A stretch of DNA of 64,000 nucleotides from Gammaproteobacteria bacterium (GTDB taxonomy: Bacteria > Pseudomonadota > Gammaproteobacteria > Tenderiales > Tenderiaceae). Both the position numbers and the translations under genes were made by a program. This document shows positions 1,403 to 17,314 of this stretch, in pieces; position 1 is the first letter of the stretch, and each line of letters begins with the position of its first letter. The stretch lies in assembly GCA_016200485.1 (NCBI GenBank), contig JACQEP010000007.1:48653-112652 (forward strand), in the 5' to 3' direction. Below the pieces are notes generated by a model. The model did no database searches, had not been told where the DNA came from, and worked only from the letters and a program-made list of their open reading frames with translations.

Positions 1403-1404
1403 CC

Positions 1405-3066
1405 ATGCTGCAAAATAACCCCGAACTAAAAGCAAAAATCGACCAGCTCTGGAATAAATTCTGGAGCGGCGGTATCTCCAATCCACTCACCGCCATCGAG
1501 CAGATTACCTACCTATTGTTCATGAAGCGGCTCGATGAAATCGACCAAAAAAAACAGGCCGATGCCGAATGGACAGGTGAGTTATATCTTTCCAAATTCG
1601 AAGGAACCTGGATGCCGCCGCAATATCGCGGGCAAAAGGATGAGAAAAAATACGCCATTGAAAAATACAAACTTCGCTGGGGTGAATTCAAAAACTATCA
1701 TGCCGAAGAGATGCTGGCTCATGTACAAACCAATGTCTTTCCTTTCCTGAAAGACCTTAACGGTGGCGAGTCAAAATTCACGCACCACATGAAAAATGCC
1801 GTCTTCATCATCCCCAAACCAGCGCTACTGGTAGAGGCAGTGAAGACCATCGACGAAATCTTCGGCATCATGGAGAAAGACTCCCAGGAAACCGGCTGCG
1901 CCTTTCAGGATATCCAGGGGGACGTCTATGAATTCCTGCTCTCTGAGATCGCCAGTGCCGGAAAAAATGGCCAATTCCGCACCCCGCGCCATATCATCAA
2001 GATGATGACTGAACTGGTGCAACCGCAACTGGGCCAGAACATCATCGACCCAGCCTGTGGTTCCGGCGGATTTTTATTGGGGGCCTATCAATACATCATC
2101 ACCCAATTAGCCATTAACGCCGGAGCTACCATCAAAATAACGCCCGACGAAGATGGCTTTAGGCGTACCTCCATCGCCGCAGGGAACACTGAAAATGCCC
2201 AAAGCATCCTGCAACGCACACTGCATGGCTATGACATCGACAGTACCATGGTACGCCTTGGTCTCATGAACCTGATGATGCACGGCATCAACGATCCGCA
2301 GATCGACTACAAAGACACCCTCAGCAAGAGCTTTAACGCCGAAGGCGAATATAACATTGTCATGGCCAACCCGCCCTTCACCGGCAGCATCGACAAGGGC
2401 GATATCAACGAACACTTGCAACTGGCCACCACCAAAACCGAACTGCTGTTTGTCGAGAACATCTACCGCCTGCTGAAAAAAGGCGGCACCGGCTGTGTCA
2501 TCGTGCTGCAAGGCGTGTTGTTCGGTTCCGGCAAGGCCTTCAAGGATCTACGCGAAACCCTGGTGACGCGCTGCGACCTCAAGGCCGTTATCACCATGCC
2601 CAGCGGCGTCTTCAAACCCTATGCCGGGGTCAGTACCGCGATTCTCCTCTTCACCAAGGTGTGGGGACCAAAAGAGAATGTCATCAAACCAGCCACCGAA
2701 CACGTCTGGTTCTACGAAATGGCCGCCGATGGTTATTCGCTGGACGACAAACGCACGAAGCTCGAAGGCCATGGCGACTTGCAGGACATCATCGCCAAAT
2801 ATCACGCACGTAATGCAGAGACAGACACCGACCGTACCCAGAAATATTTCATGGTGCCGCGCACTGACATCGAGGCCGAAGGTTATGACCTGAGCTTAAG
2901 TCGTTACAAGGAAGATGTATTTGAAGAGGTGGAGTACGAAGCCCCGGCGGTAATACTGGATAAGTTGCTCAAGGCGGAAGTGGGTAATGCCAGTGACAAG
3001 GAGCTGACCAAGGTACAGAGTGGCATTGTGCGCGAGTTGTTGGAGTTACGGGAGATGATTGGATGA
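1405..3066 (+). CDS. hsdM: Type I restriction-modification system, DNA methyltransferase subunit M (N6-adenine).
   Basis: HsdM N-terminal signature (LWNKFWSGGISNPLTAIEQITYLLFMKRLD), GQFRTPRHII, AdoMet motif I (DPACGSGGFL) and catalytic motif IV (NPPF). Stop overlaps the hsdS start (ATGA). Confidence 0.93.
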   Translation: MLQNNPELKAKIDQLWNKFWSGGISNPLTAIEQITYLLFMKRLDEIDQKKQADAEWTGELYLSKFEGTWMPPQYRGQKDEKKYAIEKYKLRWGEFKNYHAEEMLAHVQTNVFPFLKDLNGGESKFTHHMKNAVFIIPKPALLVEAVKTIDEIFGIMEKDSQETGCAFQDIQGDVYEFLLSEIASAGKNGQFRTPRHIIKMMTELVQPQLGQNIIDPACGSGGFLLGAYQYIITQLAINAGATIKITPDEDGFRRTSIAAGNTENAQSILQRTLHGYDIDSTMVRLGLMNLMMHGINDPQIDYKDTLSKSFNAEGEYNIVMANPPFTGSIDKGDINEHLQLATTKTELLFVENIYRLLKKGGTGCVIVLQGVLFGSGKAFKDLRETLVTRCDLKAVITMPSGVFKPYAGVSTAILLFTKVWGPKENVIKPATEHVWFYEMAADGYSLDDKRTKLEGHGDLQDIIAKYHARNAETDTDRTQKYFMVPRTDIEAEGYDLSLSRYKEDVFEEVEYEAPAVILDKLLKAEVGNASDKELTKVQSGIVRELLELREMIG

Positions 3067-4643
3067 GAACCGTTGCTCTCGGTGAAATTTGCAAAATTGT
3101 ATCGGGCTCAACCCCTAAAAGGAATAAACCAGAATATTGGGGAGGAGAAATCCCATGGGTTACGCCTAAAGAACTTAGCAAGATGGGATCTCCATATTTG
3201 GAAGATTCCATGGAAAAAATTACTGAACTTGGCTTCAAGTCATGTTCAACAACAATGTTGCCACCTAGGTCATTGCTGCTTAGCTCTAGAGCTCCTATTG
3301 GTTTACTGGCTATAAACAAAAAGAGTGTTTGCACGAATCAAGGTTTCAAAAGCTTGGTGCCATCAGAAGAGGCTCATGTTGAATATCTCTACTACTTCTT
3401 GAAAAACAATATTGGGGCATTACAAGCAAAGGGTAACGGCGCAACTTTTAAAGAATTATCAAGGTCTTCTGTAGAAGAGTTCAAAATCCGCCTCCCACCA
3501 CTTGACGACCAAATCCGCATTGCCCATCTGCTCGGCAAAGTGGAAGGGCTGATCGCCCAGCGCAAACAACACCTGCAACAACTCGACGACCTGCTCAAAA
3601 GCGTCTTTCTGGAGATGTTTGGCGATCCGGTGCGGAATGAGAAGGGGTGGGACATTCAACCTTGCCAAAAAGCCGTATTGGATATTTCTTCAGGCACAAG
3701 TTACGGCGGTGAAGACAGGGCGTTTGTAGGTTCTGACGAAGTTGGAGTGCTGAAGATAAGTGCAGTAACAAAAGGCACATTTGATCCAGCAGAGTTTAAG
3801 GTTGTTAATCCAGCGCAGATAACGAAGACACTTCGCTTTGTTAAGCGTGGCGATTTTCTGTTTAGTCGTGCAAATACGGTCGAGCTTGTTGCTGCATGCT
3901 GCGTTGTTCCACAGGACTACGCACGGTTATTTCTGCCCGATAAGTTATGGGTTTTGACTCTCAATGCTGAGTTAGTAAATTCGCAATTCTTCAATCGCTT
4001 GCTGAAGAATGAACGCTTTCGAGATGTCGTAAGAAGCCTGGCGAGCGGCGGCCACGATTCGATGCTGAATATTTCGATGAAGAAATTTATGACTCTCGAT
4101 ATTCCATGCCCGCCGATCAATCTCCAAAATCAATTCGCCGCAATCGTTGAAAAGATCGAAGGTATCAAATCCCACTACCAACAAAGCCTCACAGAACTAG
4201 AAAACCTCTATGGTGCATTAAGCCAAAAGGCCTTCAAAGGGGAGCTAGATTTGTCGCGTGCCCCTCTGTTAGTGAAGCTGGATGTCGCCGACAACCTAAC
4301 AATGCAACTGGAAGAGAAGGCGGGCCAGAGACATGTAACTACATCCATTGATGTGGTTGATGAGTACCCCATGTCAAACCCGGCTGCCCGCGAGAGGCTG
4401 CTTCGTAGGCTGTTTGATGAGTTTATACAAGACCTGAAAAAAGGTGCCGTCTTGTCGTTAGATTACTTCTGGCAATCAGTGCACTGGAAAGCCGTGGATT
4501 TTACGCACGAAGGGGAGCAGCCCTTTGGCTCGGCGGAGTATGAGCTGGTAAAACGCTGGTTGTTTGAATCTATTAAGTCGGGGCAGTTGGAACAGGCTTT
4601 TGATGAGGATAACAACAAAATTGCGCTGAAGTTGACAGGCTGA
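3063..4643 (+). CDS. hsdS: Type I RM specificity subunit S with two target-recognition domains plus an unusual ~128-aa C-terminal extension.
   Basis: TRD1 start (GEICKIVSGSTPKRNKPEYWGGEIPWVTPKEL). Central conserved region (LPPLDDQIRIAHLLGKVEGLIAQRKQHLQQLDDLLKSVFLEMFGDP). Second conserved region (NLQNQFAAIVEKIEGIKSHYQQSLTELENLYGALSQKAFKGEL). Coding continues ~128 aa past the usual HsdS end. TRD1 (3063-3480) is visibly AT-rich relative to the conserved spacers. Confidence 0.9.
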   Translation: MRTVALGEICKIVSGSTPKRNKPEYWGGEIPWVTPKELSKMGSPYLEDSMEKITELGFKSCSTTMLPPRSLLLSSRAPIGLLAINKKSVCTNQGFKSLVPSEEAHVEYLYYFLKNNIGALQAKGNGATFKELSRSSVEEFKIRLPPLDDQIRIAHLLGKVEGLIAQRKQHLQQLDDLLKSVFLEMFGDPVRNEKGWDIQPCQKAVLDISSGTSYGGEDRAFVGSDEVGVLKISAVTKGTFDPAEFKVVNPAQITKTLRFVKRGDFLFSRANTVELVAACCVVPQDYARLFLPDKLWVLTLNAELVNSQFFNRLLKNERFRDVVRSLASGGHDSMLNISMKKFMTLDIPCPPINLQNQFAAIVEKIEGIKSHYQQSLTELENLYGALSQKAFKGELDLSRAPLLVKLDVADNLTMQLEEKAGQRHVTTSIDVVDEYPMSNPAARERLLRRLFDEFIQDLKKGAVLSLDYFWQSVHWKAVDFTHEGEQPFGSAEYELVKRWLFESIKSGQLEQAFDEDNNKIALKLTG

Positions 4644-4648
4644 TCCTG

Positions 4649-6454
4649 GTGAAACTGTTGCGGCTAAAGATCACCGATCCTGCTGGTTTCCGCAGCCTGC
4701 AGCCGGGTTTCGAGTATCTCTTCCGTACGCCCTGGGAAATCGAAAGCGAGTTGCAGGAGGGGCAGGGCTTTGCGCCTTTTGTTTGTGCTGGACCAAATGG
4801 CAGCGGTAAGTCCAATCTGCTCGAAGTTCTGGCGGCAATATTTTTTAGCATTGAAAGCCGTTATTTGGATTTTTTACCAGATCAATTTGCCGAAAACGGT
4901 GAGGAAGTCGATGTATTTACATCGACAAATACCAAGCCCGACAGCTTCGAGCTGGAATACTTGATACCTCATGAGACTAATACCAGTCCCGTCGAATTTA
5001 AGGACGCTCATGTTGTCATATCAAAAACAGCGGGAAATAGTCCAGAATTGAATTGTTTAAATAAAAGCGAGTTCGGCATTGATGAAAAGGACTCTATTTC
5101 TCGACAACAAGCCAAAAAACTATTACCGCAGTATGTTCTTGGTTGCTCTTCGGGGGAAAACGAGATATTGAGCCTGCCTTTTTTCAAGCTGCGTTTTGTC
5201 CAGTTCGATGAATATTGGAATGCGCTAAGCAACCAATTGCCTTATCCAGGTAGACCAGAAACTAGGCTTGCCTATCTCGATAGTTCCTTTAGTCAGGCGA
5301 TTTTGCTCTGCAATCTGCTCTTTCAGGATGCAGAAACGCTAATGCCATTTCGCGAAGACGTTGGCGTGGAGGAACTGAGAGAGTTTCGTATTATTATCAA
5401 GCGCAGCATCGATGTTTCCGCTGAGATTGCTGCGAAATTTGAAAGAGGAGGTTTTGCTGAAGAGGGTTATGCGCAGGGTGGATATTATGCCAGTAATCCA
5501 GCGCTTACCTTGGACGGCGAGACCGGTCGTCACACCATTAATCTCATGCGCCTGCTTGAGGCCGGTAAAGATTCCGCAGAGAATTTTGATCCAATCGTTA
5601 CACGTCTAAAACGATGTGCGACTTGCTCCTTCGTGGATGAAACAACCGATACGCTTTATCTCGATTATTACGTCAATGAAGCAACTAAAGAGGCGTTCAA
5701 AGAAAATTTCGATTATTCGCCAATAGCATTGTTTCAGGCGTTTCAGGTCTTGCTCTCACTTAATCTCTATTCCGTTAGCGATACATTGAAAAGTAACCTG
5801 TACAAATCCGATAGCCTTTATGTTGGGGAAACCGTGCCAATCTTAGCCTCTGATGAGCGCATTATGAGATTTAAGCATTTTCTGTTAAAGAAAAGGGGCG
5901 CTGAAGAATCTGTGCTTCTTAAAAGCCTATCTGATGGCGAGCATCAGCTTTTGCACATCCTTGGCCTATGTTTGTTGTTCAGAAATACCAACAGTCTATT
6001 TCTGCTCGATGAGCCGGAAACCCACTTCAACCCGGACTGGCGTTCGAACTTTATCACGCGCCTGCGCCAGTGTTTTCGCGAGTCCACAGATACCCATGAA
6101 ATGCTTGTTACGACCCATGCCCCCTTCTTAATCTCCGACAGTAAACCAGAAAAGGTACTGGTCTTTAAGAAAGACGAGGGGCTCGGAACGGTCAACATCA
6201 GCAAACCGGATTACAACACCCTGGGCGCATCGATTAACAAGATCACTATGAATACCTTCGGCAAACGGGAAACTATTGGCGGCTATGCACAGTCGATTCT
6301 TGAGGGTCTGCGTAACCGGTTTGAAGGTGGCGAGGACAAGGATCAGCTCATTAATGAGATTAATCAGCAACTGGGCGACTCGGTTGAAAAGGTACTGCTG
6401 ATCAAGACTATCCTTGATGGCATGGAGGGTGAGGGTAATGCTGTTCCCGTATAA
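4649..6454 (+). CDS. ABC/SMC-type (AAA_21/AAA_15-like) ATPase, GTG start; candidate PtuA-like defence ATPase.
   Basis: Walker A (GPNGSGKSN), ABC signature-like (LSDGEHQLLHILG), Walker B/D-loop (LFLLDEPETHFNP) and H-loop (TTHAPF). GTG at 4649 lies 5 nt after the hsdS stop. An insertion between Walker A and the signature is typical of SMC/OLD/PtuA-like ATPases. Confidence 0.85.
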   Translation: MKLLRLKITDPAGFRSLQPGFEYLFRTPWEIESELQEGQGFAPFVCAGPNGSGKSNLLEVLAAIFFSIESRYLDFLPDQFAENGEEVDVFTSTNTKPDSFELEYLIPHETNTSPVEFKDAHVVISKTAGNSPELNCLNKSEFGIDEKDSISRQQAKKLLPQYVLGCSSGENEILSLPFFKLRFVQFDEYWNALSNQLPYPGRPETRLAYLDSSFSQAILLCNLLFQDAETLMPFREDVGVEELREFRIIIKRSIDVSAEIAAKFERGGFAEEGYAQGGYYASNPALTLDGETGRHTINLMRLLEAGKDSAENFDPIVTRLKRCATCSFVDETTDTLYLDYYVNEATKEAFKENFDYSPIALFQAFQVLLSLNLYSVSDTLKSNLYKSDSLYVGETVPILASDERIMRFKHFLLKKRGAEESVLLKSLSDGEHQLLHILGLCLLFRNTNSLFLLDEPETHFNPDWRSNFITRLRQCFRESTDTHEMLVTTHAPFLISDSKPEKVLVFKKDEGLGTVNISKPDYNTLGASINKITMNTFGKRETIGGYAQSILEGLRNRFEGGEDKDQLINEINQQLGDSVEKVLLIKTILDGMEGEGNAVPV

Positions 6455-7526
6455 ATACGTTCCGCACCAGATGGAGAAGATGCAAGAGTTTATCGACTTT
6501 ATCTTTTTTGAGGTGTGGTGCAAGGCTCTTTGGGAAGAGTACGATATTTCCCTCTTCAACAGTTGCCCAGAGCTGAAAACCATGATCGAAGGTCTGTACC
6601 ACACGGAGCCCAAGGGGGCAGATTTTTTCATAAAAGGCATTCAACAGATTTTCGATCAATTCAAAGTTCTGAATTATTTTGACTTGATGCGAATGCAAAG
6701 GTGGTACGAGGCAAATAACAATATAGAAGCAGCTTGTAGTCGAAAAGGAAAGGTTAATCCTGTTAGGTATGGCTCTTTAGGAAAAAGCTTCAATGAGCGG
6801 TACCAAGGGCTGAGTAAATCGCTTCACGCGTTCTTCAAGGACCTCTATTCACCAAACTTCTTAACGCTGAAAATTATTGAAAATGCGATTGGTAATATCG
6901 ACGACCATTATCAGCACTTCGTGCAGGTAAACACTGCGGGAAAATGCCCGTTTTGCGGAATCGGTGACGTGAAGGGCGTGCATCACACCAAGCGCGAAGC
7001 CTACGACCACTATCTCCCCAAGGCGCTCTACCCGTTTAGCTCAATCAATTTCCGCAACCTTGCTCCGGCCTGCCACGAGTGCAACAGCACCTATAAGCTC
7101 AGCAAGGACCCGGTGAATACTGCCGCAGGTCGTCGCAAGGCCTTTTACCCCTACGCTGATCCTGGTTCCAATATCGAAGTGACGATTGAACTCAGCAAGC
7201 CGGATGTTGATGATCTCACTCCTGCTGATATTCAGCTTGCCTTCGGTCCGTCGGAGTTAAATGAAGAAATTGAAACATGGAAAGATGTATACGGTATCGA
7301 GGAGCGGTATCGAGGAAAGTTGTTGGAAGGAGATGGAAAAGCGTGGCTCACAGAAATTTTGGACGAATGGAAATGGAAGGAAGTGAGCAATGGCAACGAA
7401 GGGCGCTCTCCCGCTGAATACCTTCGGGCCCTAAACCGTCACGTAACAAATTCACCATTTACAGGGGCTAATTTTCTCAAAAAGGCATTTCTTGAAGCAT
7501 GTGAAAGACAAAAATTGTTTGGCTAA
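6438..7526 (+). CDS. HNH-family endonuclease with an N-terminal ~170-aa domain of unknown function; candidate PtuB-like nuclease partner of the upstream ATPase (alternative start at 6414).
   Basis: HNH zinc/catalytic motif (CPFCG...HHTKREAYDHYLPK...FRNLAPACHECN). ATG at 6438 is preceded by GGAGGGTGAGGG and overlaps the ATPase stop at 6454. The N-terminal half is AT-rich. Confidence 0.8.
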   Translation: MLFPYKYVPHQMEKMQEFIDFIFFEVWCKALWEEYDISLFNSCPELKTMIEGLYHTEPKGADFFIKGIQQIFDQFKVLNYFDLMRMQRWYEANNNIEAACSRKGKVNPVRYGSLGKSFNERYQGLSKSLHAFFKDLYSPNFLTLKIIENAIGNIDDHYQHFVQVNTAGKCPFCGIGDVKGVHHTKREAYDHYLPKALYPFSSINFRNLAPACHECNSTYKLSKDPVNTAAGRRKAFYPYADPGSNIEVTIELSKPDVDDLTPADIQLAFGPSELNEEIETWKDVYGIEERYRGKLLEGDGKAWLTEILDEWKWKEVSNGNEGRSPAEYLRALNRHVTNSPFTGANFLKKAFLEACERQKLFG

Positions 7527-8989: not shown

Positions 8990-9334
8990 CTATTCGCCAG
9001 TGTAATTGGCAGCGATGTAGTTGCCATCCGGAGTATAGAATAGATATAAAGTTTGCTTGGAGGCGTCACTCACTTTCTCATTCTTGAATATCACCACCCA
9101 TTCAGGGCCGTCTGCAAAGGTCTTTTGTTCTACCGAAGCGGGTTGAATTCCAGACCAGGACGCATCAATTTTTCCGGCCGTTGCCAGTTGTTCAACTTTT
9201 TGCATTGCCTTGCCAGAGGTCACATCCGCAGAAACGGGCCCATGAGAATGGCCGTGATCGTGCCCTGATCCTGCATATATTGGGTTTGCAAAAAACAAGA
9301 ACAGTGAAACTAGTGTAGAAATTAGATAACGCAT
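8990..9334 (-). CDS. Secreted His-rich putative metal-binding periplasmic protein (114 aa).
   Basis: Start MRYLISTLVSLFLFFANPIYA (signal peptide) preceded by GGAGGA. GSGHDHGHSHGP His-rich motif. The longer ORF-track start (9409) is upstream of the RBS and is rejected. Confidence 0.6.
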   Translation of the reverse strand: MRYLISTLVSLFLFFANPIYAGSGHDHGHSHGPVSADVTSGKAMQKVEQLATAGKIDASWSGIQPASVEQKTFADGPEWVVIFKNEKVSDASKQTLYLFYTPDGNYIAANYTGE

Positions 9335-9350
9335 AAATCCTCCAGGTCTA

Positions 9351-9485
9351 TTAATTGATGGTGTCATGTTGATTTGTTTGATCATGTGAGTGCCCATTAC
9401 CATGGGCATGGCCGTCTTCTGATGAGCATGCAGAAAATAGCGTTAAACTTGAACAGGTGAATATTATCAAAACTAACTTGTGCAT
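9351..9485 (-). CDS. 44-aa His-rich lipoprotein-like peptide (MHKLVLIIFTCSSLTLFSACSSEDGHAHGNGHSHDQTNQHDTIN), absent from the ORF track.
   Basis: GGAGGT RBS 6 nt upstream of the ATG. Lipobox-like LFSAC. Same GHxHGxGHSH motif as the downstream gene, and tandem with it. Confidence 0.45.
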   Translation of the reverse strand: MHKLVLIIFTCSSLTLFSACSSEDGHAHGNGHSHDQTNQHDTIN

Positions 9486-9501
9486 TATTTACCTCCTATC
9501 G

Positions 9502-10692
9502 TTAATCAATGCTTTCATGTCTTGCCTGGAGTTTTGGAGCTGGTTCGTTAATTACCTTATTTTTATCCACTAGCTGATATTCGCCATTTACTTTTAGCGA
9601 AATGGTGATAGGTGTGTGGGTGTTGTTTTTCCAATACCAACCATGTGTACCTGCAAATGTAGAGGTTAAAGAGCCGCTTGACTGGCTTTCCGTACTCTTG
9701 TGGAAGCTTTTGAAATAGCCGGTGGTATCGCCTGCGGGTTCACCATGAAAATCATAAAACAGTGGCTCGCCATCTGTTCGCCATGAATAGTTAAACGTCG
9801 CACCTTTGGCTAGAAAGAGTTTGTACTCCTTATCACCTCTGGCAGGTATCGTGACAGCGATGGAATCTTTCCACTCTGTAGACTCCATGCTTGCAAGGCC
9901 TCCTTGCACGGCAGTAGATTGCGCGGAGGCTTCTTTACTTGCGCCTAGCTCTTTATTGATGGTGTGCTCATAACCATGCATTTGCATGAAAAATAGGTAA
10001 ATTCCCATGGCTATCAAGGCATAGTTTGCAATCAGGCTGAACGCTTTGAAACCATGGGTTTTACGCCATGCCGCAATCAGCAATAACATCAGGAACAGCG
10101 CGCTGATTTGTCCCAGTTCGATGCCTATGTTGAACGAAATAATATTCAGTAACAGTCCGTCTTCGCTTAGCGGCAGTTCCTGCAAACGCGTGGATAAGCC
10201 AAAACCATGGATCAGCCCAAGCCCAATGATCATCAGCATCATGTTAGGTGGGTTAATACCAAGATATTTACGAAAGCCGTCAATGTTAGCGAAAGCGATA
10301 TAACACACACTGAGCGCAATCACTGCATCAATGAGGAAGTAGTTAAGCTGAATCGCGTTAAATGTGGCGAAAATCAGCGTGACACTGTGCCCCAGTGTAA
10401 ACGCGGTCACGTATTTGGCAATATCCCGAAAGGTGGTTAGGAAGAAGATGATCCCGAAGACAAACGCAAGATGGTCGTAGCCGGAAAGCATGTGTGTAGC
10501 GCCTAGCCACAAATACTGCACGTTACCACCGTCGATGATTGCCTGTTTTTCCGCTCCAGACATACCATGAGCAAAGGCAAGATTGGAAAACAATGCAAAC
10601 AGCACGAGCCCGGTGATTAGAATAAACAGATTTCGTTTGACTAACATGGCTTGATTATTCTGGGGTAATGAGATTGCTTTGCTGCTAATCAC
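9502..10692 (-). CDS. HupE/UreJ-family (Ni/Co) membrane transporter fused to a ~140-aa C-terminal soluble domain.
   Basis: HupE/UreJ signature HMLSGYDHLAFVFGIIFF. Multiple TM segments over ~250 aa, followed by a hydrophilic tail (KELGASKEASAQ...WKNNTHTPITISLKVNGEYQLV). Confidence 0.7.
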   Translation of the reverse strand: MISSKAISLPQNNQAMLVKRNLFILITGLVLFALFSNLAFAHGMSGAEKQAIIDGGNVQYLWLGATHMLSGYDHLAFVFGIIFFLTTFRDIAKYVTAFTLGHSVTLIFATFNAIQLNYFLIDAVIALSVCYIAFANIDGFRKYLGINPPNMMLMIIGLGLIHGFGLSTRLQELPLSEDGLLLNIISFNIGIELGQISALFLMLLLIAAWRKTHGFKAFSLIANYALIAMGIYLFFMQMHGYEHTINKELGASKEASAQSTAVQGGLASMESTEWKDSIAVTIPARGDKEYKLFLAKGATFNYSWRTDGEPLFYDFHGEPAGDTTGYFKSFHKSTESQSSGSLTSTFAGTHGWYWKNNTHTPITISLKVNGEYQLVDKNKVINEPAPKLQARHESID

Positions 10693-10997
10693 AGGCGACC
10701 TCCTTTTTCGGCAGCTGTTACCCAGTAAACGCCATGTCCCGTGAGATTGGCTTGCGCCTCACTAAGCTTTGCCAATACAGCATTTACATCAGTATCCTCA
10801 AGTAAAATATCTGTCCGTATACGTGGGGCATAGCCAACCACGTTATCGTGTGCAGTTATAAAAGGGTCGCTTTCCACTTCTACACCATGACCTTCGACGT
10901 GGCTAAAGGTAAAGCCTGAGACCTGATCAATAGTGCGTAATAAATCAGCCAGTTGTTGCTGAACGTTCGTATGAACAATAAGCGTTAATACTTTCAT
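10689..10997 (-). CDS. Small P-II-fold/DUF3240-like protein of the kind found beside cation-efflux genes.
   Basis: 102 aa. MKVLTLIVHTNVQQQLADLL...GHGV pattern. 4-nt overlap with the HupE/UreJ gene. The family assignment is from memory. Confidence 0.5.
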   Translation of the reverse strand: MKVLTLIVHTNVQQQLADLLRTIDQVSGFTFSHVEGHGVEVESDPFITAHDNVVGYAPRIRTDILLEDTDVNAVLAKLSEAQANLTGHGVYWVTAAEKGGRL

Positions 10998-11141
10998 GCG
11001 TATTCCTCTGCAATGAATCGAATCTTTAGGGTTGCCAGTGCACCAGAAATCGGCTGCATTACTGGCTTAAATTTATGTCGCATGGATACGGTCGGCTCGA
11101 GTCTAAGTCGAGCGAGCATCAATACATTGATAGAGAAACGC

Positions 11142-11558
11142 TTAAAGTGGTGGTGCGCGAAGCGGTGGGATTAGATGAAATCGACGGGGAAGGCTAACGT
11201 TGCCACGATTTATAGGAAATTTATTTCGATATAGCCCAGGTACGGGCAGGAACAGCACGATGCCTATTAAGGCTGCCATCAGTAGATTGCTAGCTACCTG
11301 TTTTAAGCAGTCCGGGCATGCATCAATCACTGTTGTTGTTTCATCATGGTGATCCTGATGGGAGCTGTCTAAAGAAAGGTGAGCCCCACCAATGTGAGAG
11401 TGTCCATTGATATTGTCGATTGAGTGATGACCTTGATGCGAGTCATGATCAAAGCTGTGGACATGTAGAGTTACGCCTTGAGCTGACAGCATTAGCAATG
11501 AAAGCAATACTGTCCACGCAATCAATATTCTCTTATCTATTTTACGAAAAAAATCCAT
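11142..11558 (-). CDS. His-rich secreted/membrane-anchored putative metal-binding protein (DUF2946-like?).
   Basis: N-terminal signal/TM. HVHSFDHDSHQGHHSIDNINGHSHIGGAH...HQDHHDE. CPDC motif. C-terminal hydrophobic segment. Confidence 0.5.
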   Translation of the reverse strand: MDFFRKIDKRILIAWTVLLSLLMLSAQGVTLHVHSFDHDSHQGHHSIDNINGHSHIGGAHLSLDSSHQDHHDETTTVIDACPDCLKQVASNLLMAALIGIVLFLPVPGLYRNKFPINRGNVSLPRRFHLIPPLRAPPL

Positions 11559-11665
11559 CGTGGCAGTCTAGCAACTTAAGTGTCCAAGTGTAAATCGGAT
11601 ATTATTTGATCCAATTCGACAATAAGGAAAAATTCTTTATTTTGACAAGCCTTATTCATGTGTAC

Positions 11666-11941
11666 TTATTTGAGATAGGAGCGTAACACTGCCACAACCT
11701 GCTCCAGATCCTCATTGCGCTGCTGAGGCGTCACACCCTCAGCGCCTAGATGCTCCCTGAGATGCCCCTCCAGCACTTCAGTCATGAGGCCATTTACCGC
11801 ACCACGAATCGCCGCAATCTGCTGAAGAATCGCCACACATTCTTTATCTTGTTCCAGGGCCTTTTCTAAGGCCTCTGTCTGCCCTTTGATGCGGCGTAAT
11901 CGGGTCAGCAGTTGTTTCTTACCTTCAATCGTATGCGACAT
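11666..11941 (-). CDS. RcnR/FrmR/CsoR-family metal-sensing transcriptional repressor (DmeR-like), 91 aa.
   Basis: N-terminus MSHTIEGKKQLLTRLRRIKGQTEALEKAL matches the RcnR/FrmR family. Divergent to a CDF transporter. The longer ORF-track start is rejected. Confidence 0.8.
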   Translation of the reverse strand: MSHTIEGKKQLLTRLRRIKGQTEALEKALEQDKECVAILQQIAAIRGAVNGLMTEVLEGHLREHLGAEGVTPQQRNEDLEQVVAVLRSYLK

Positions 11942-11962
11942 GGTTTCTCTTTCTAAGAGAGG

Positions 11963-11981
11963 TATACTGAGGTATAGTATA
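11963..11981. promoter_or_regulatory. Candidate RcnR/DmeR operator: inverted repeat TATACT-N7-AGTATA in the divergent intergenic region.
   Basis: tatactgaggtatagtata contains TACT-N7-AGTA, resembling the E. coli RcnR site consensus TACT-G6-N-AGTA. An adjacent direct repeat GAGGTATA x2 is present. Confidence 0.5.
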
Positions 11982-12011
11982 TGCCAATATGAATCAAGTA
12001 GACAAATTTCG

Positions 12012-12974
12012 ATGATCCCCCCCAAAACAGACAACGACTGGAATCACTCTCACGTATTTGATGAGGGCAATCCACTGGCGGAAAGAAATACCCGCTGGGC
12101 GGTGATTCTGACGGCAATCATGATGGTGGTCGAAATCGCTGGCGGCTGGGTATTTAACTCAATGGCATTATTGGCCGACGGTTGGCACATGAGTTCACAC
12201 GCTCTGGCACTGGGTCTCTCTGTGGCAGCCTATGTCGCCGCCCGGCGCTTTGCCCATGATGGCCGATTTGCGTTTGGCACCTGGAAAATTGAGGTTCTGG
12301 GCAGCTATACCAGCGCAATCCTGCTCATTGGTGTTGCCGGACTGATGCTTTACCAGTCGGTAGAACGACTCATGGCGCCGTCCCCTATCCACTACGATCA
12401 AGCGATTTTCGTTGCCATCCTAGGCTTATTGGTCAATCTCGCCTGTGCTTGGCTACTCAATGACGGACATGCGCATCATGATCATGACCTTGATCACGGA
12501 CACCATCATGACCTGAACCTGCGCGCTGCCTATCTCCACGTACTTGCCGATGCAGCAACCTCCGTCCTGGCTATTTTGGCGTTGATCGGTGGTAAATTAT
12601 GGGGAGCTAGCTGGCTTGATCCCGCAATGGGCATCGTTGGTGCGGTGTTGGTTACGGTATGGGCTTATGGGCTGTTACACGACGCAGGGCGAGTGCTGCT
12701 CGATGCAGAAATGAATGCCCCCGTGGTCAATGAAATTCGTGACGTGATCGACGCCTGCCCCTCCGATGCACATATCTGCGACCTTCATGTGTGGCGTGTC
12801 GGCAAGGGTAAATACGCCTGCATCCTATCGCTTATCGTTAATGCCGATTCTAACGATGATGCGGAATATTACCAAAAGCAGTTGGGCATTCACGAGGAGC
12901 TTGTTCATATCACTGTGGAAATAAAGAACCAACAAAAACCTGTTGATCTTGAAGCTGAAATTGCACCAGCTTAA
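12012..12974 (+). CDS. Cation diffusion facilitator (CDF) family Co/Ni/Zn efflux transporter (DmeF/CzcD-like).
   Basis: MIPPKTDNDWNHSHVF...WAVILTAIMMVVEIAGG. His-rich cytoplasmic loop (HAHHDHDLDHGHHHDLN) followed by LRAAYLHVLADAATSV. Start chosen at 12012 rather than the ORF-track 11886. Confidence 0.85.
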   Translation: MIPPKTDNDWNHSHVFDEGNPLAERNTRWAVILTAIMMVVEIAGGWVFNSMALLADGWHMSSHALALGLSVAAYVAARRFAHDGRFAFGTWKIEVLGSYTSAILLIGVAGLMLYQSVERLMAPSPIHYDQAIFVAILGLLVNLACAWLLNDGHAHHDHDLDHGHHHDLNLRAAYLHVLADAATSVLAILALIGGKLWGASWLDPAMGIVGAVLVTVWAYGLLHDAGRVLLDAEMNAPVVNEIRDVIDACPSDAHICDLHVWRVGKGKYACILSLIVNADSNDDAEYYQKQLGIHEELVHITVEIKNQQKPVDLEAEIAPA

Positions 12975-13203
12975 ACACATAAGTGGCGCAATATAGCTTG
13001 GACAAGAGCCCGAAGAGGAATAAGGGAATGTCTGCTATCGCGATTCCTGCCGTTCGCTCCATAGTAGACATTCGCTAACTCCACTTTCAAAGGCAGCAAA
13101 GGGTCGTTCTGAGTCATTAAAAATTCAAGCGAATCCGACGTTCTCTGTTATATCAAGCACCATATCTTCCTGTCACCAAATGCGGATACCTGGGGAAGGG
13201 TGA

Positions 13204-13263
13204 ATTACGCAAAATTACCTGTGTCATGCGTAATTATGCAAATCGCGCGTAATTATGCGTAAT
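13204..13263. repeat. Iteron-like array of the 7-mer GCGTAAT (one inverted ATTACGC copy plus three direct copies, two of them as GCGTAATTATGC).
   Basis: Direct reading: gaATTACGCaaaattacctgtgtcatGCGTAATTATGCaaatcgcGCGTAATTATGCGTAATctgg. Confidence 0.6.
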
Positions 13264-13352
13264 CTGGCGGGGCAACTTATTGGCGTAGGGACTATTTAGG
13301 GGCGTGATCTCCACGGTCAACGAAGAGACAATGTATCCTGAGATCGCTTTTA

Positions 13353-13568
13353 TCAAGCCACAAACCGCACCTTATGCCTCGCCAACGCAATCGTTACCGT
13401 CGCCCCGACATTAAATTCCAGATAATCGCCTTCAATCCCGTCGCTGAAAATCACACCATTGCCCGTCATCTGTGAGTGAATAATGAGTGGCAGTTCGTTG
13501 GTGACCACGCCGAAGATGTGTGAGGTCTGCGTGGGCTTGCTCGGAAACGGTTCCCGTACCGCAAACAT
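13353..13568 (-). CDS. Hypothetical small protein, possibly a gene fragment.
   Basis: Open frame only. No motif recognised. Start uncertain. Confidence 0.2.
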   Translation of the reverse strand: MFAVREPFPSKPTQTSHIFGVVTNELPLIIHSQMTGNGVIFSDGIEGDYLEFNVGATVTIALARHKVRFVA

Positions 13569-13641
13569 GTACCCTTATGGAAGAGGGGTTAGCGGTGACG
13601 CCCCCTCGCCCATAAGCCGACGAGGGGTAATGTCAGCGATT

Positions 13642-13881
13642 TTAGTGTTTCCGATCCATTGGAGGACTTGGATCTTTACCGTAGCTGTCGCTGTCGCGTA
13701 TCTGGCCATTTTGGCGATGAATGACAACTTCTGCGTGCTCCCGTTTAGCCTGATCACGGGCGCGATCAATAGCTTCGCGCTGCGTATCGTGCTTTGACCC
13801 AGCCCGGTCGGCCCCTTCTTTTTTGGTCGCCCATCCGCCGTCTTTATGCGGTACAACATGTATGTCACGTTTCTTGCTCAT
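13642..13881 (-). CDS. DUF2188 domain-containing small protein.
   Basis: HVVPHKDGGWATKKEGADRAGSKHDTQREAIDRARDQAKREHAEVVIHRQNGQIRDSDSYGKDPSPP matches the DUF2188 pattern, recognised from memory. Confidence 0.7.
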   Translation of the reverse strand: MSKKRDIHVVPHKDGGWATKKEGADRAGSKHDTQREAIDRARDQAKREHAEVVIHRQNGQIRDSDSYGKDPSPPMDRKH

Positions 13882-13898
13882 ATCAGACCTCTTTTCAT

Positions 13899-14162
13899 TT
13901 AGCAGTTAGCCAAGTCATCCAGATTGTTGCGGGACGTGTTGTCCTTGTCCGTGCGCAGATATTTCCCCCTTGGTCCGTTAACCACGCGGATCGGAGTCTT
14001 TGTGCCATCGCTCCATGGGACATGGTACTGATGTGCCCTGGTTTCAATATCCCGGATCGCATCCGCCTTGTCACGGGGAGACCAAAATTCGCCGTGATTA
14101 CACAGACCGGTAATGTCGCCATCGCGATCCTTCCTGCTTCGGGTTACAGCTCTTATTGCCAT
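13899..14162 (-). CDS. DUF3892 domain-containing small protein.
   Basis: ITGLCNHGEFWSPRDKADAIRDIETRAHQYHV...RVVNGPRGKYLRTDKDNTSRNNLDDL matches the DUF3892 pattern, recognised from memory. Confidence 0.65.
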   Translation of the reverse strand: MAIRAVTRSRKDRDGDITGLCNHGEFWSPRDKADAIRDIETRAHQYHVPWSDGTKTPIRVVNGPRGKYLRTDKDNTSRNNLDDLANC

Positions 14163-14305
14163 GTGAGCACCTCATTTCAGTTGATTAAAAATAAATGTAA
14201 TGTAAAATACTACGATTCCGTATAGACCATGGGTCTAAAAAACGCCTAGCGCGTATATACGAAGGCGTATTTTATTAATATACTCTAACGTATAGAGGTT
14301 GTGCA

Positions 14306-14641
14306 ATGGTAAATGATGATGTTTTTCCGCAAAGACTCGTGGCTGCCCGCAAGAAGCGGGAACTCAGCCAGGATGATCTGGCCCAGAGGTCAGGGCTACA
14401 ACCCGCTGCGGTATCTCACTTTGAAACGGGAGCACGCAAGCCCTCTTTTGATAATCTGCGTCGGTTGGCAGATGCACTCAACGTAACCGCCGATTACTTA
14501 CTCGGCCGTACAGACGATCCCGAAGGGTTTGCCGAAGCGGACGTGGCTTTTCGGCACGGCTTTGAAAAGCTATCTTCAGACCAGAGGGAGATAGCTCTGG
14601 ACTTTATTCAGGTGTTGGCCAAGAGAAACAAGAAAGAATAG
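14306..14641 (+). CDS. XRE-family helix-turn-helix transcriptional regulator.
   Basis: LVAARKKRELSQDDLAQRSGLQPAAVSHFETGARKPSFDNLRRLADALNVTADYLLG is a Cro/C1-type HTH. Confidence 0.85.
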   Translation: MVNDDVFPQRLVAARKKRELSQDDLAQRSGLQPAAVSHFETGARKPSFDNLRRLADALNVTADYLLGRTDDPEGFAEADVAFRHGFEKLSSDQREIALDFIQVLAKRNKKE

Positions 14642-14653
14642 GAGCCACCTGAG

Positions 14654-15511
14654 ATGGATCCCTTTGCCACGAGAGAAGCTGAGCGGCTCCTGAAGGAGTG
14701 GGGAGTTACATCTCTTCCGGTCAATCCGGTTGCCATTGCTGTGCAGCATGACATTGTTTGTCAGGCCATGCCATCGCAGAATGGCGGGGTGTCGGGAATG
14801 TTGATAAAAAACAAGCGGGCGTTTGGTATTCTTTACGCCACCCATATAGAAAACGAGGGCTTCCAGCGTTTCAGTGTCGCGCACGAGCTGGGGCATTATT
14901 TTTTACCCGGCCATCCCGAAGCGGTGTTCGCAGGCGGCGTTATCCACGAATCACGGGCTGGATTTGTCTCTGACGATACATATGAAAGTGAGGCTGATCA
15001 TTTTGCCAGCGGCTTGCTTATGCCGAATTTTTTGTTCGATCCCGTATTAGATCGTGCCGGGGAAGGGATGGAAGTGGTTAAAACGCTGAAGCAGCTCTGT
15101 GGTACGTCTCTGGTGGCCACGGCTATCCGTTATGCTCAGAGAACGCCGGCGCCCGCCGCGATTGTAGTGAGCATAGGTGATAAGGTGGATTACTGCTTCA
15201 TGTCGGATGATCTGAAGGAATATCCGGGACTGGCCTGGCTCAAAAAAGGGATGGGCGTTCCGCGCGGCACAAAAACGCACACTTTCAACAGAGATGTGGA
15301 TAATGTGCGTCTTGCCAGAGAAGATGCAGATTCCATCAGCTTGGCGACATGGTTTGGTAGTAGAATAAAAGGTGAGCTGTATGAAGAAGTCATCGGTCTT
15401 GGCAGATATGGCAAGACATTGACTGTACTTTCCGCATCCGATCTGCCTGATCTTGAGGAGATCGAAGAGGATGAAGAACTTGAGGATTCATGGGCGATTC
15501 GCTTCAGATAA
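14654..15511 (+). CDS. ImmA/IrrE-family (DUF955) zinc metallopeptidase with an acidic C-terminal tail.
   Basis: HEXXH motif in FSVAHELGHYFLPGH. Immediately downstream of the XRE gene with a 12-nt gap. Tail DLPDLEEIEEDEELEDS. Confidence 0.8.
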   Translation: MDPFATREAERLLKEWGVTSLPVNPVAIAVQHDIVCQAMPSQNGGVSGMLIKNKRAFGILYATHIENEGFQRFSVAHELGHYFLPGHPEAVFAGGVIHESRAGFVSDDTYESEADHFASGLLMPNFLFDPVLDRAGEGMEVVKTLKQLCGTSLVATAIRYAQRTPAPAAIVVSIGDKVDYCFMSDDLKEYPGLAWLKKGMGVPRGTKTHTFNRDVDNVRLAREDADSISLATWFGSRIKGELYEEVIGLGRYGKTLTVLSASDLPDLEEIEEDEELEDSWAIRFR

Positions 15512-15640
15512 TGCCGATTTTTTGAATGTGGTAAATAAGTTAATTCCATTGATGCTGGTAATGCGGACAAGCTATTGTTTAATGCGTATGGAGACGTGGA
15601 AGCCGCACAAAATAACTTCATTCATATGATAAGGATCTCT

Positions 15641-15673
15641 AATTACAAACTTTATATCTTAATTACAAACTTT
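15641..15673. repeat. 13-bp direct repeat AATTACAAACTTT x2 spaced 20 bp apart in an AT-rich convergent intergenic region.
   Basis: Direct reading: ctctAATTACAAACTTTatatcttAATTACAAACTTTtttatc. Confidence 0.6.
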
Positions 15674-15742: not shown

Positions 15743-17314
15743 TTATGCCTGTAAGCGCGCCACCAGTTGACGCAACTCCTTTGCCTGCTGGTTGAGATGG
15801 CCGCTTATTTCGGCGGTGGACTGAGCATTATCCCTGCTGTTGCTGGCACCTGAGCTGATGGCAGTGATACTTCGATTGATTTCTTCGGCTACCGCGGTTT
15901 GCTCCTCGGTGGCTGTGGCAATCTGGGTGTTTATATCGGTGATGGAAGCGATGGCATTGTCGATGGCATCCAGCGCTTCGTTGGACTTATGTGACTGATT
16001 GATTGTGCTGTCACTCTCGTTCTTTGCACGTTCCATTTCCTTGGCGGCTGCATTGGTGCCGGATTGCAGGCGTTCGATCAGGCCGCGTATTTCCTGGGTT
16101 GCTTTTTGTGTGCGCATGGCCAGAGTTCTGACTTCATCGGCGACGACGGCAAAACCCCTGCCCTGTTCGCCGGCGCGTGCAGCCTCAATGGCGGCATTTA
16201 GGGCAAGCAGGTTGGTCTGTTCGGCGATTTCCTGAATCAACTGTACGACGGCATTGATATTGCGACTTTCATTTTCCAGAGCTTTGATAGTTTCTGCGAC
16301 GCGCCCAACTTCAGCAACAAAGCGCACCATGGATTCCATGTTGTTCTGGATCAGTCGTTTACTCGTCCCTACTTCCTGGCGGGTTTCGCTGGCTGAGCGC
16401 GCGCCGTGATTGGCATTCCGAGCGACCTCTTGAAAGCTGGCTACCATTTCATTCATGGCGGTGGCGAGTTGCTCAAGCTCGGCCTGTAGAGTTTGTGCGC
16501 CTTGATTTGCATTTTCTGAATTGGCGGCAACGTTCTGAGCGGAAGATACAATTGTATTTGATACATCGGCGACACGCCCCATCGAAGATCTGATTTGTGC
16601 CCTGAGTATCTGCAAGGCAACCCGAAGTTGACCGATCTCATCATTCCTGCCGGTATACATGAACTGGGTAAGCGGATTGTCGATAATAGATTTGGTTTCG
16701 GCAACGAAGGTGCTTAACGGACTGAGACACCACTTCACCATCCCATAAGCAAGTGCCGAGACGATGGCTGCGGTAATGAATGTCGATGTCCAGCTAATGA
16801 CATCAAAAAATTTTGCTGACCACAGCATGGCGACAAACAAAAACATAAAACCAGTATAAACACGGCTCACTAGGCCGAAACTAGAACTCCACGAGGTAAA
16901 CGCTTTGCCAGAATTGATCGCTTTATACATAGTATCGGCACGTTCAACCAAGTCACGGTTTGGTTTGACGCGTACCGACTCATAACCGATGACATCTTTG
17001 CCCTCGATGATGGGGCTGACGTAGGCATCGACCCAATAGAAATCGCCATTTTTACAGCGATTTTTGACAATCCCCATCCATGCTTTGCCGGACTTAAGTG
17101 AGTTCCATAAATCGGCAAAAGCAGCGGGGGGTACGTCAGGATGCCGCACCATGTTGTGATTTTTGCCGATGATTTCATCAAGGCTAAAGCCGGCCACATC
17201 ACAAAAATCTTTGTTTGCGCTGGTGAGGGCGCCCTTCTTGTCGGTAGTGGAAACGATCTGGATGCTGGCATCGTAACTGCGTTCATTATTGGTAACAGGT
17301 AGATTAGACTTCAC
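15743..17314 (-). CDS. Methyl-accepting chemotaxis protein with an N-terminal PAS domain (Aer-like aerotaxis receptor).
   Basis: PAS region ([39 protein letters not shown]). Two TM segments. MCP signalling-domain hallmarks ([32 protein letters not shown]). Confidence 0.88.

Follow-up and report, generated by a model that had tools for sequence, protein, structure and literature searches.

Is the compact four-gene locus at positions 13642–15511 of a 64-kb stretch of gammaproteobacterial DNA the relic of a mobile element's control switch, or does it form a functional module of its own? The stretch (referred to below, at its full length, as the window) comes from a metagenome-assembled genome (contig JACQEP010000007.1), and the locus consists of two gene pairs on opposite strands: a predicted repressor and a zinc metallopeptidase on one, and two very small proteins of the DUF3892 and DUF2188 families on the other. 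Our analysis points to a complete stress switch of the CapH/CapP type in control of a minimal DUF3892–DUF2188 cargo with a protective or anti-phage role, and we regard this as the probable explanation of the locus.

The cargo operon, on the reverse strand, begins with a promoter-proximal gene for an 87-residue DUF3892 protein (positions 13899–14162; Pfam PF13031, E = 5.5e-6, with a score of 27.2 bits against a curated cut-off of 22.3). Its second gene encodes a 79-residue DUF2188 protein (13642–13881; PF09954, E = 4.8e-26), starts 17 nucleotides past the DUF3892 stop codon and has its own ribosome-binding site (AAAGAGG). On the forward strand lie the genes for a 111-residue capH-like repressor of the XRE family (14306–14641; Pfam HTH_3, a helix-turn-helix (HTH) family, E = 1.4e-15 over residues 13–65) and a 285-residue capP-like zinc metallopeptidase (14654–15511; Peptidase_M78, E = 2.2e-11). 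The four domain matches are far beyond chance, and the listing of open reading frames (ORFs), the Pfam matches and the NCBI annotation (MBI3771798-801, with identical ORF calls) agree with the genes and domains proposed in a preliminary description made from the sequence alone.

The same description had called the regulatory pair intact, and every feature that it named is present: the capH stop codon (TAG, 14639–14641) is separated from the capP ATG (14654) by a 12-nucleotide spacer, the HExxH motif of the peptidase occurs as HELGH at residues 77–81 (nucleotides 14882–14896), and the C-terminal tail of the peptidase is acidic (DLPDLEEIEEDEELEDSW). Its statement that the two gene pairs are convergent had to be corrected. 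They diverge from a 143-bp control region (14163–14305) whose layout is kept in 13 related loci, and the truly convergent pair at the locus is formed by capP and the gene for a methyl-accepting chemotaxis protein (MCP; 15743–17314, reverse strand).

For each of the four proteins, full-length homologues at 50–90% identity number in the hundreds to thousands, with the nearest relatives in Candidatus Thiodiazotropha, Sedimenticola, Thiolapillus and Marinicella. When a 2.8-kb segment was searched at the DNA level, no match was found in E. coli genomes or phages, and plasmids yielded short coding-sequence matches only.

Assignment of the regulatory pair to the CapH/CapP family

CapH is a repressor that is cleaved by CapP, a peptidase activated by single-stranded DNA (ssDNA) (Lau et al. 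2022, bioRxiv 10.1101/2022.04.27.489752; Calloji et al. 2026, bioRxiv 10.64898/2026.05.16.725639). The pair was first described upstream of operons of the cyclic oligonucleotide-based antiphage signalling system (CBASS), and in all such systems capH and capP are divergent from the operon that they regulate (Lau et al. 2022).

The HTH protein of our locus matches the PADLOC model for capH with an E-value of 9.7e-25 (residues 6–108, profile positions 6–102 of 103), and the peptidase matches the capP model with an E-value of 5.4e-61 (profile positions 6–240 of 242, up to residue 260). The best match of the peptidase in the Protein Data Bank (PDB) is Thauera CapP (7T5T, E = 2.8e-8, aligned up to residue 204), and structures of Deinococcus IrrE are matched more weakly (3DTE and 8SLM, E = 1.6e-4 and 3.1e-4). 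A tblastn search of plasmids further identified a capH–capP pair of approximately 49% identity on Acinetobacter baumannii plasmid pWM98-2, where it faces an annotated CBASS oligonucleotide cyclase operon; the two pairs align end to end, the C-terminal part of CapH aligns free of gaps, and the plasmid pair retains the F-R dipeptide as well as the HExxH...E ligands. Because of the PADLOC, 7T5T and pWM98-2 matches we place the pair in the CapH/CapP clade and not with the ImmR/ImmA type of the integrative and conjugative element (ICE) ICEBs1, and by sequence and architecture it is assigned to the CapH/CapP family. Gene order, protein sizes, divergent placement and full-length profile matches are all shared with described systems, as are a zinc site of HExxH plus Glu and an F-R dipeptide that coincides with the cleavage position of E. 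coli CapH.

An alignment of 42 sequences showed the zinc ligands H77, E78 and H81 and the third ligand E111 of CapP to be invariant, and E111 aligns with E129 of Thauera CapP in the 7T5T alignment. W195 and W280 are nearly invariant in the same set and, judged by numbering alone, may be equivalent to W196 and W280, which have been described as residues of the ssDNA groove of E. coli CapP (Lau et al. 2022; Calloji et al. 2026). The C-terminal half of our CapP may comprise an HTH-like linker and a GAF domain, as in the solved CapP, where the GAF domain forms the ssDNA groove.

E. coli CapH forms a dimer of dimers, requires oligomerisation for DNA binding, and is cleaved by CapP between residues F82 and R83, which lie in the first helix of the C-terminal domain (Lau et al. 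2022; Calloji et al. 2026). The C-terminal helical region of the repressor described here is likewise predicted to be an oligomerisation domain; a PDB search with its C-terminal 45 residues did not retrieve the C-terminal domain structure of CapH. The dipeptide F82–R83 lies within the motif ADVAF|RHGF and is encoded at nucleotides 14549–14554, and we predict that CapP would cleave CapH at F82|R83.

Architecture of the divergent control region

The 143 bp between the two operons contain three candidate operators, two predicted promoters and a central inverted repeat. A sigma-70-like promoter on the forward strand (TTGATT-16-TAAAAT, positions 14181–14208, matching the consensus at 9/12 positions) is predicted to read towards capH from a position adjoining the start codon of the cargo operon, and an equivalent of the form TTGAyn-16/17-TAnAAT is found in most of the 12 intergenic regions that were read for comparison. 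The first candidate operator (O1, 14211–14222), the palindrome TACGattcCGTA, lies directly downstream of the −10 element of this promoter, and in 13/13 loci it occupies positions −82 to −95 from the capH ATG. The second (O2, 14258–14269; TACGaaggCGTA) is found at −34 to −47 in related loci, at an O1–O2 spacing of 47–50 bp. The third (O3, 14281–14292; TACTctaaCGTA) follows O2 at a spacing of approximately 23 bp and is degenerate, with one core mismatch; in the Thiodiazotropha locus it is perfect (TACGATAACGTA). The predicted reverse-strand promoter (TGCACA-17-TATATT, 14277–14305, sigma-70-like, again 9/12) reads towards DUF3892 and thus faces the forward-strand promoter, with O3 in its spacer and O2 at about +1. 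Equivalents were recognised in 6/7 of the related intergenic regions read for it, with none clear in one locus (L011).

The sequence TACG-N4-CGTA occurs twice in the 64-kb window, where 0.34 copies are expected, and both copies are intergenic; within that search, which was limited to the window, no further operator copies were found elsewhere. Across 13 related intergenic regions, including those of loci with different cargo, the shorter form ACG-N4-CGT was observed 24 times against an expectation of 0.19, and its copies occupy three fixed places, about −90, −40 and −15 relative to the first codon of capH. The presence of several palindromic sites fits a repressor that, like E. coli CapH, assembles into a dimer of dimers and depends on oligomerisation for DNA binding. 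This architecture, three predicted operators in contrast to the single 22-bp site described for a CapH/CapP system, is new here. ACG-N4-CGT was not found in the CBASS-linked promoter region of pWM98-2, and operator specificity therefore appears to differ within the CapH/CapP family.

At the centre of the region, positions 14236–14274 form an inverted repeat (TAAAAAACGCCT / AGGCGTATTTTA) with 12-nucleotide arms that are 92% complementary, the right arm overlapping O2. An A6 tract (14237–14242) and a T-rich run stand at its sides, and folding of the RNA gives a terminator-like hairpin on either strand; an A-tract beside a GC-rich hairpin is present at the corresponding place in other loci. The repeat resembles a bidirectional terminator, and a promoter-like site points at it from each side. 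Its effect may be to attenuate both leaders, it may bend the DNA between O1 and O2, or it may signal that the promoters have been wrongly assigned; a search by eye for back-to-back promoters on either side of the hairpin yielded no acceptable −35/−10 pairs.

Recurrence of the four-gene cassette

That CapH/CapP-like pairs can stand opposite these small genes has been reported before. Lau et al. (2022) list three sets of operons with DUF2188 or DUF3892 that have such pairs upstream and in opposite orientation, with examples from Tsuneonella (DUF2188 and cyclases), Extensimonas (two hypothetical proteins and DUF2188) and Sulfitobacter (two DUF3892 proteins), and these operons are presented as putative defence systems, with Burroughs & Aravind 2020 cited for the predicted defence role. 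The association itself is thus already published and not new, and for that reason the locus will not surprise a specialist. The exact two-gene cargo of DUF3892 plus DUF2188 is missing from the examples of Lau et al. (2022), and is a variation on their theme. Of the two possibilities left by the preliminary description, that of a self-contained module is the better supported, with the reservation that modules of this kind had already been listed.

We surveyed the recurrence of the locus from two directions, starting in one case from DUF2188 in 80 species-representative genomes (with partners sought within 3.5 kb) and in the other from CapP in 80 metagenome loci, of which 62 were informative. 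The identical four-gene layout is present in Ca. Thiodiazotropha weberae and Marinicella meishanensis (small proteins of 79 and 87 residues, a repressor of 111 or 108 residues and a peptidase of about 269–286 residues). Other close relatives have DUF3892 only beside CapH/CapP, and in further ones the regulatory pair precedes a ubiquitin-like operon with DUF3892 nearby. At least a dozen unrelated genomes carry the cassette as a unit, an observation that is new here. The gene that follows DUF2188 in four-gene loci varies by genome or lies on the other strand, and because nothing past DUF2188 is conserved, the conserved mobile unit comprises exactly four genes.

Among the DUF2188-anchored loci the full cassette was found in 8–9 of the 80. 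In four others the DUF3892–DUF2188 pair is opposite a diverged capP (in L010, the one scanned, the PADLOC capP match had E = 6e-55), and five have capH/capP with a weak DUF3892 match or none, two of these facing DUF2188 directly. The order RmrT–RmrA–DUF2188 accounts for 11/80 and a weaker M78 match for 10/80; ten contigs were too short to judge. Altogether DUF2188 has an M78/HTH partner within 3.5 kb at 38/80 loci. The two small genes had been thought frequently to travel together, which is true of part of the sample: DUF3892 is directly upstream of DUF2188 in 15–16 of the 80 loci and not in the rest. From the side of CapP, the DUF3892+DUF2188 pair was seen in 4/62 loci, DUF3892 is the first cargo gene in 17/62 (about 27%; 13 of these without the DUF2188 pair), DUF2188 comes first in 3/62, and either small gene is elsewhere in the locus in 6/62. 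The remaining 36/62 have other cargo and neither small gene.

A variant arrangement was noted in L010, L016, L020 and L025, where DUF3892–DUF2188 faces a three-gene operon encoding proteins of about 190 and 140 residues and a diverged capP of 257–286 residues. In L020 and L025 this variant is followed by a conserved protein of about 585–591 residues, for which the copy scanned (L020) gave no PADLOC match.

Genomic setting and mobility

In other genomes the cassette has neighbours typical of defence islands, among them an OLD-like ATPase, an SNF2 helicase, BrxR with a type I restriction-modification (R-M) system, DruA, MmeI, MazG and DUF488/mSLOG, and a Tn7-like transposon was seen as well. The plasmid tblastn search with the peptidase returned 99 records, 54 of them conjugative. 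Full-length relatives of the peptidase were found in 1 of 50,697 phage records, and 2.9 million viral contigs of IMG/VR contained six DUF2188 loci and four DUF3892 loci.

These distributions bear on the idea that the locus is a relic ImmR/ImmA-type switch for lysogeny or excision, left behind by a decayed prophage or ICE. In ICEBs1 and phage-like elements, too, DNA damage leads an M78 peptidase to inactivate its cognate XRE repressor, so that the domain pair is shared, and the HTH domain of our CapH matches the structure of the ICEBs1 regulator (7T8I, E = 1.7e-5). Poor coding content and short repeats also mark the 667 bp on the left side of the module. The four genes are nevertheless intact and highly conserved, the peptidase has the long C-terminal half that matches the CapP profile, and the cassette recurs together with its operators in unrelated genomes that lack phage or ICE genes at the site, mostly in defence islands and plasmids, with the phage and plasmid counts given above (a single phage genome against 99 plasmid records) and the few viral matches of the small genes pointing the same way. 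At the locus itself, and in agreement with the preliminary description, we found no integrase, excisionase, phage structural or conjugation genes within about 10 kb. The only tRNA gene is 26 kb away, GC content does not differ from that of the flanks, and a search for flanking direct repeats or target-site duplications gave only weak and unconvincing matches (17–19 nucleotides, 76–82% identity).

As to whether the cassette lies inside a prophage or ICE elsewhere, a point to which the preliminary description had drawn attention in advance, two cases were encountered, both in IMG/VR. In L093 a single 449-residue ORF (positions 4358–5707 of that locus; HTH_3 plus Peptidase_M78) represents a fusion of CapH and CapP and is divergent from DUF3892–DUF2188; a DNA methylase lies to one side and, at the contig end on the opposite side, a tyrosine integrase. 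In L098 the module is near a terminase. Such cases are rare, and in both the module looks like accessory cargo beside the integrase or terminase and not the element's own immunity switch. We therefore consider descent from a decayed element's switch very improbable and this explanation largely refuted.

The two small proteins and their partners

Both small proteins are under strong purifying selection. Mean column identity is 72–73% in alignments that span proteobacterial classes, Nitrospirota, Chloroflexota, Planctomycetes and others, and identity between phyla is about 70–80%. The predicted structure of DUF3892 (mean predicted local distance difference test score (pLDDT) 93) consists of two beta-beta-beta-alpha units, a confident fold with no solved counterpart, and its invariant residues include C21 and the C-terminal C87. 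DUF2188 is predicted to form a small beta-beta-alpha-beta-beta domain (pLDDT 85) and has H8, H12, W17, H55, R56 and a DSDS motif among its invariant residues. The DUF2188 protein of Bacillus subtilis, YdaT, is a general-stress protein. In sequence searches of the PDB, DUF2188 found no match even at E ≤ 10 and DUF3892 chance-level matches only, and for neither protein was similarity to an enzyme fold detected.

A profile search of 1.8 billion representatives identified 921 relatives of DUF3892, mostly stand-alone proteins of about 87 residues. Fusions to caspase, tyrosinase, alpha/beta-hydrolase, C2, pentapeptide-repeat or PKD domains also occur, a pattern typical of sensor or adaptor domains, and DUF3892 most likely acts in such a capacity. 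The Aravind group has described DUF3892 in the same terms on the basis of Min-Wnt fusions, and has likened its fold to double-stranded RNA (dsRNA)-binding domains and to ribosome-hibernation factors. DUF2188 is most likely a small binding protein that works with, or downstream of, a peptidase/repressor pair. It travels both with the split, divergent CapH/CapP and with the fused, co-directional RmrA, and DUF3892 is followed, depending on the locus, by DUF2188, by another tiny protein of 61–64 residues or by ubiquitin-like systems. This genomic behaviour suggests partners of HTH/M78 switches and not stand-alone enzymes. The association of DUF2188 and DUF3892 across different regulators is a further new observation.

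The 61–64-residue protein (e.g. MSKQYKPGEKAPRSGQYAIVGPRGG...PPPPRK) is encoded directly after DUF3892 in L089 (3995–4180), L121, L129, L130, L131, L157 and L159, in CapH/CapP-controlled operons where it stands alone or ahead of multiubiquitin/ThiF/DUF6527 genes. We take it to resemble YjzC-like proteins.

At other loci the small genes lie ahead of recognisable effectors. The gene right behind DUF2188 in L019 encodes a CBASS effector of the patatin type (PADLOC E = 1.5e-96), and L047 has an ORF of similar size in that place (the PADLOC scan covered L019 only); ubiquitin-like (Bil-type) systems lie behind the small genes in L089, L162 and L176. Both small proteins are thus promoter-proximal companions of HTH/M78 switches, with an effector behind them or, at our locus, without one: the cargo here is DUF3892 and DUF2188 only and, unlike that of described CapH/CapP systems, includes no CBASS, DISARM (defence island system associated with restriction-modification), cyclase or ubiquitin-like effector.

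This raises the question of whether the locus is an effector-less regulator cassette, in which DUF3892 and DUF2188 would be accessory signalling parts, such as feedback modulators of CapP/CapH or sensors that widen its input, and which would either act in trans elsewhere as a stand-alone switch or have lost, or not yet gained, its effector. The promoter-proximal position of the small genes before varied effectors (patatin/CBASS, ubiquitin-like and, in Lau et al., cyclases) agrees with this, as do the placement of DUF2188 as a third gene behind RmrA, after a separate RmrT, and the lack of detected enzyme-fold similarity. The four-gene form is nonetheless kept in at least a dozen genomes with variable neighbours, which argues for a function on its own; the operator is absent elsewhere in the 64 kb searched; and the 36/62 sampled CapH/CapP loci without either small gene manage without such accessories. 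We think this explanation possible, if rather doubtful.

A toxin module had also been suggested for the locus, and the nearest known system of that kind is RosmerTA (RmrT/RmrA; Millman et al. 2022, bioRxiv 10.1101/2022.05.11.491447). It shares the HTH and zinc-peptidase functions, and zinc-peptidase antitoxins are an established arrangement, so that one of the small proteins might be a toxin and CapH/CapP a split version of the RmrA antitoxin and regulator. The PADLOC RmrA models give partial matches to CapH and CapP over the corresponding halves (E = 4e-16 and 4e-10 at best), and a DUF2188 of the same subfamily (PDC-S16) is encoded directly behind bona fide RmrA in 11 sampled genomes. RmrA, however, is one fused protein that is co-transcribed with the toxin, whereas here the domains are on two proteins and the small genes are divergent from the regulator, unlike in bicistronic toxin-antitoxin operons. 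The capH and capP models also fit far better than those for RmrA. In RosmerTA-type loci the toxin position upstream of rmrA is taken by a separate gene of about 216 codons, to which DUF2188 is an extra third gene, and no homologue of this 216-residue protein was found at our locus. A toxin module is not directly supported, and we judge a toxin-antitoxin role decidedly unlikely.

The 11 RosmerTA-type loci (L028, L034, L035, L037, L052, L064, L070, L075, L077, L087 and L088) come, by their record titles, mostly from Burkholderiales/Comamonadaceae (L070 is titled Pseudomonadota only). Each has the conserved gene for the protein of about 216 residues, RmrA (in L034, which was scanned, PADLOC E = 2e-161) and DUF2188/PDC-S16, with reading frames that overlap or abut, and some RosmerTA systems may thus include DUF2188 as a third component that has gone unrecognised.

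PDC-S16 itself is a PADLOC single-gene candidate, listed without description. The 79-residue DUF2188 protein matches both of its models (E = 8.1e-33 and 1.2e-31; residues 1–74, positions 1–73 of 75), and here the gene is part of a two-gene operon that is predicted to be regulated. No experimental validation of PDC-S16 was found in the literature searched, and membership is no proof of function.

A general response to DNA damage or stress is a further possibility, with the small proteins protecting or repairing nucleic acids or ribosomes. The model for such a circuit of the radiation or desiccation type is IrrE/DdrO of Deinococcus, in which an ssDNA-activated M78 peptidase with a GAF domain cuts an XRE repressor near its C-terminal dimerisation domain. 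CapP shares this superfamily and logic, is homologous to IrrE (3DTE and 8SLM, E about 1e-4) and, like it, is ssDNA-responsive; the dsRNA-binding domains and ribosome-hibernation factors to which the fold of DUF3892 has been likened would suit such a role, as would the general-stress protein YdaT, and genes for SOS-response-associated peptidases (SRAP) are near the module in L001 and L090. Similarity to IrrE is weaker than to CapP, however, and IrrE/DdrO run a chromosomal repair regulon, whereas the module described here is a mobile cassette with private cargo. Its distribution is patchy and horizontally transferred, on conjugative plasmids and in defence islands and at no fixed chromosomal site, and DUF2188 is a PADLOC defence-island candidate. 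We consider a general stress response unlikely. The explanations are partly compatible: a CapH/CapP-type switch with its own protective cargo, an effector-less cassette and a stress regulator share the regulatory half.

A proposed switch and the points that weigh against it

On the explanation that we favour, a complete switch with a minimal protective or anti-phage cargo, CapH would oligomerise through its C-terminal helices and bind the three (T/G)ACG-N4-CGT(A/C) palindromes of the 143-bp region. Because these operators overlap the two facing promoter-like sites, binding would keep both operons, capH–capP and DUF3892–DUF2188, switched off. ssDNA arising from DNA damage or from phage replication would then activate CapP, which would cut CapH, with the cut predicted at F82|R83, inside the oligomerisation domain's first helix; the cut repressor would leave the DNA, and DUF3892 and DUF2188 would be transcribed. 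Together the two proteins most likely provide a damage-induced protective or anti-phage response. What the analysis shows directly is gene content, family membership by sequence and the conservation of synteny and of the operator sequences; the regulatory steps are extrapolated from the studied CapH/CapP systems, and the promoters and the defence role are likewise inferred from sequence and genomic context.

Several observations weigh against this proposal. The switch loop of CapP, similar in length to that of Thauera CapP, contains no cysteine; Thauera C113 aligns to G94/G95, and the loop has instead an invariant His98-x-Ser100 (H98 and S100 are the same in all 42 sequences). A cysteine-switch loop is present in only 33% of CBASS CapPs (Lau et al. 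2022). CapH has no tryptophan at all, and hence no equivalent of W35, which is described as the anchor of E. coli CapH on CapP (Lau et al. 2022; Calloji et al. 2026). The numbering match of F82–R83 rests on alignment with the CBASS-linked CapH of pWM98-2 and not with E. coli MS115-1 CapH. Two promoters that face each other across a terminator-like hairpin make the path to full-length transcripts puzzling, and the promoter assignment may be wrong. In the DUF2188-anchored survey, 31/80 loci have no M78/HTH partner within 3.5 kb. Finally, the small proteins precede bona fide effectors in many loci, so that the four-gene form is possibly a regulator cassette without an effector.

A broader possibility is that DUF3892 and DUF2188 are unrecognised working partners of all HTH/M78 switches, whether CapH/CapP, fused CapH–CapP or RmrA, and that on their own they constitute a complete DNA-damage-induced output, which could be exerted, for instance, through attachment to ribosomes, to nucleic acids or to a phage protein, or through feedback on the peptidase. 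We put this forward tentatively and would not count on it. If it is true, the facing promoters, the central hairpin and the three operators would make up a bistable or pulse-generating switch and not a simple repressor site.

Links to defence loci have been met repeatedly for the widespread and extremely conserved DUF2188 and DUF3892 families, and the cassette is the simplest natural setting for both, with a single switch, the two small genes, a compact control region with clear candidate operators, and no further effector. This simplicity makes it a convenient system in which to study what the small proteins do, whether they are effectors or signalling parts, and how a three-operator region with facing promoters affects induction.

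Surroundings of the locus in the window

To the left of the module, positions 8990–12974 are occupied by genes of metal homeostasis, encoding DUF6488, HupE/UreJ, a P-II-like DUF3240 protein, a His-rich DUF2946 protein, a metal-sensing repressor of the CsoR/RcnR type and a CDF cation-efflux transporter. To the right are the MCP gene and genes for a GNAT protein and a P-type ATPase. A defence cluster is situated 6–12 kb to the left of the module (155–7526). It encodes a protein with HATPase_c_4 and Fic-like_C domains (155–1402), the HsdM (1405–3066) and HsdS (3063–4643) subunits of a type I R-M system, a Septu-like PtuA-type ATPase (4649–6454; PADLOC E = 2e-48) and a PtuB/PDC-M01B-like protein, also Septu-like (6414–7526); no HsdR was found among the ORFs checked.

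Between the CDF transporter gene and DUF2188 lie 667 bp without a recognisable gene (12975–13641). They carry two exact copies of GCGTAATTATGC (13228–13239 and 13247–13258) together with related half-copies, and a 62-bp segment (13201–13262) shares 84% identity with an intergenic site of Vibrio tubiashii plasmid p123 that carries no annotation. An orphan ORF of 71 codons downstream of DUF2188 (13353–13568; MBI3771797.1) forms a singleton cluster, has no Pfam, PHROGs, PADLOC or NCBIfam family and no relative in any fetched locus, and was on these grounds rejected as part of the conserved unit. Just past the DUF2188 stop codon, on the reverse strand, is a GC-rich hairpin (13575–13618; CTTATGG..GAGGGG...CCCCCTC..CCATAAG) with no T-run behind it; the 85-nucleotide region folds with −32.8 kcal/mol, and the hairpin could be a transcript end or an element of the repetitive extragenic palindromic (REP) type.

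A perfect 15-nucleotide inverted repeat (13732–13746 / 14424–14438) joins the coding regions of DUF2188 and capH, so that both mRNAs carry AAACGGGAGCACGCA. A rough estimate puts the chance of such a repeat in 2.9 kb at about 0.004. It was not found in eight orthologous loci (the longest shared k-mer was 7–10 nucleotides), and for that reason we treat it as probably a coincidence. On the other side of the module, capP and the convergent MCP gene are separated by an AT-rich gap of 231 bp, which contains two exact copies of TAATTACAAACTTT (within 15640–15673), whose starts are 20 bp apart.

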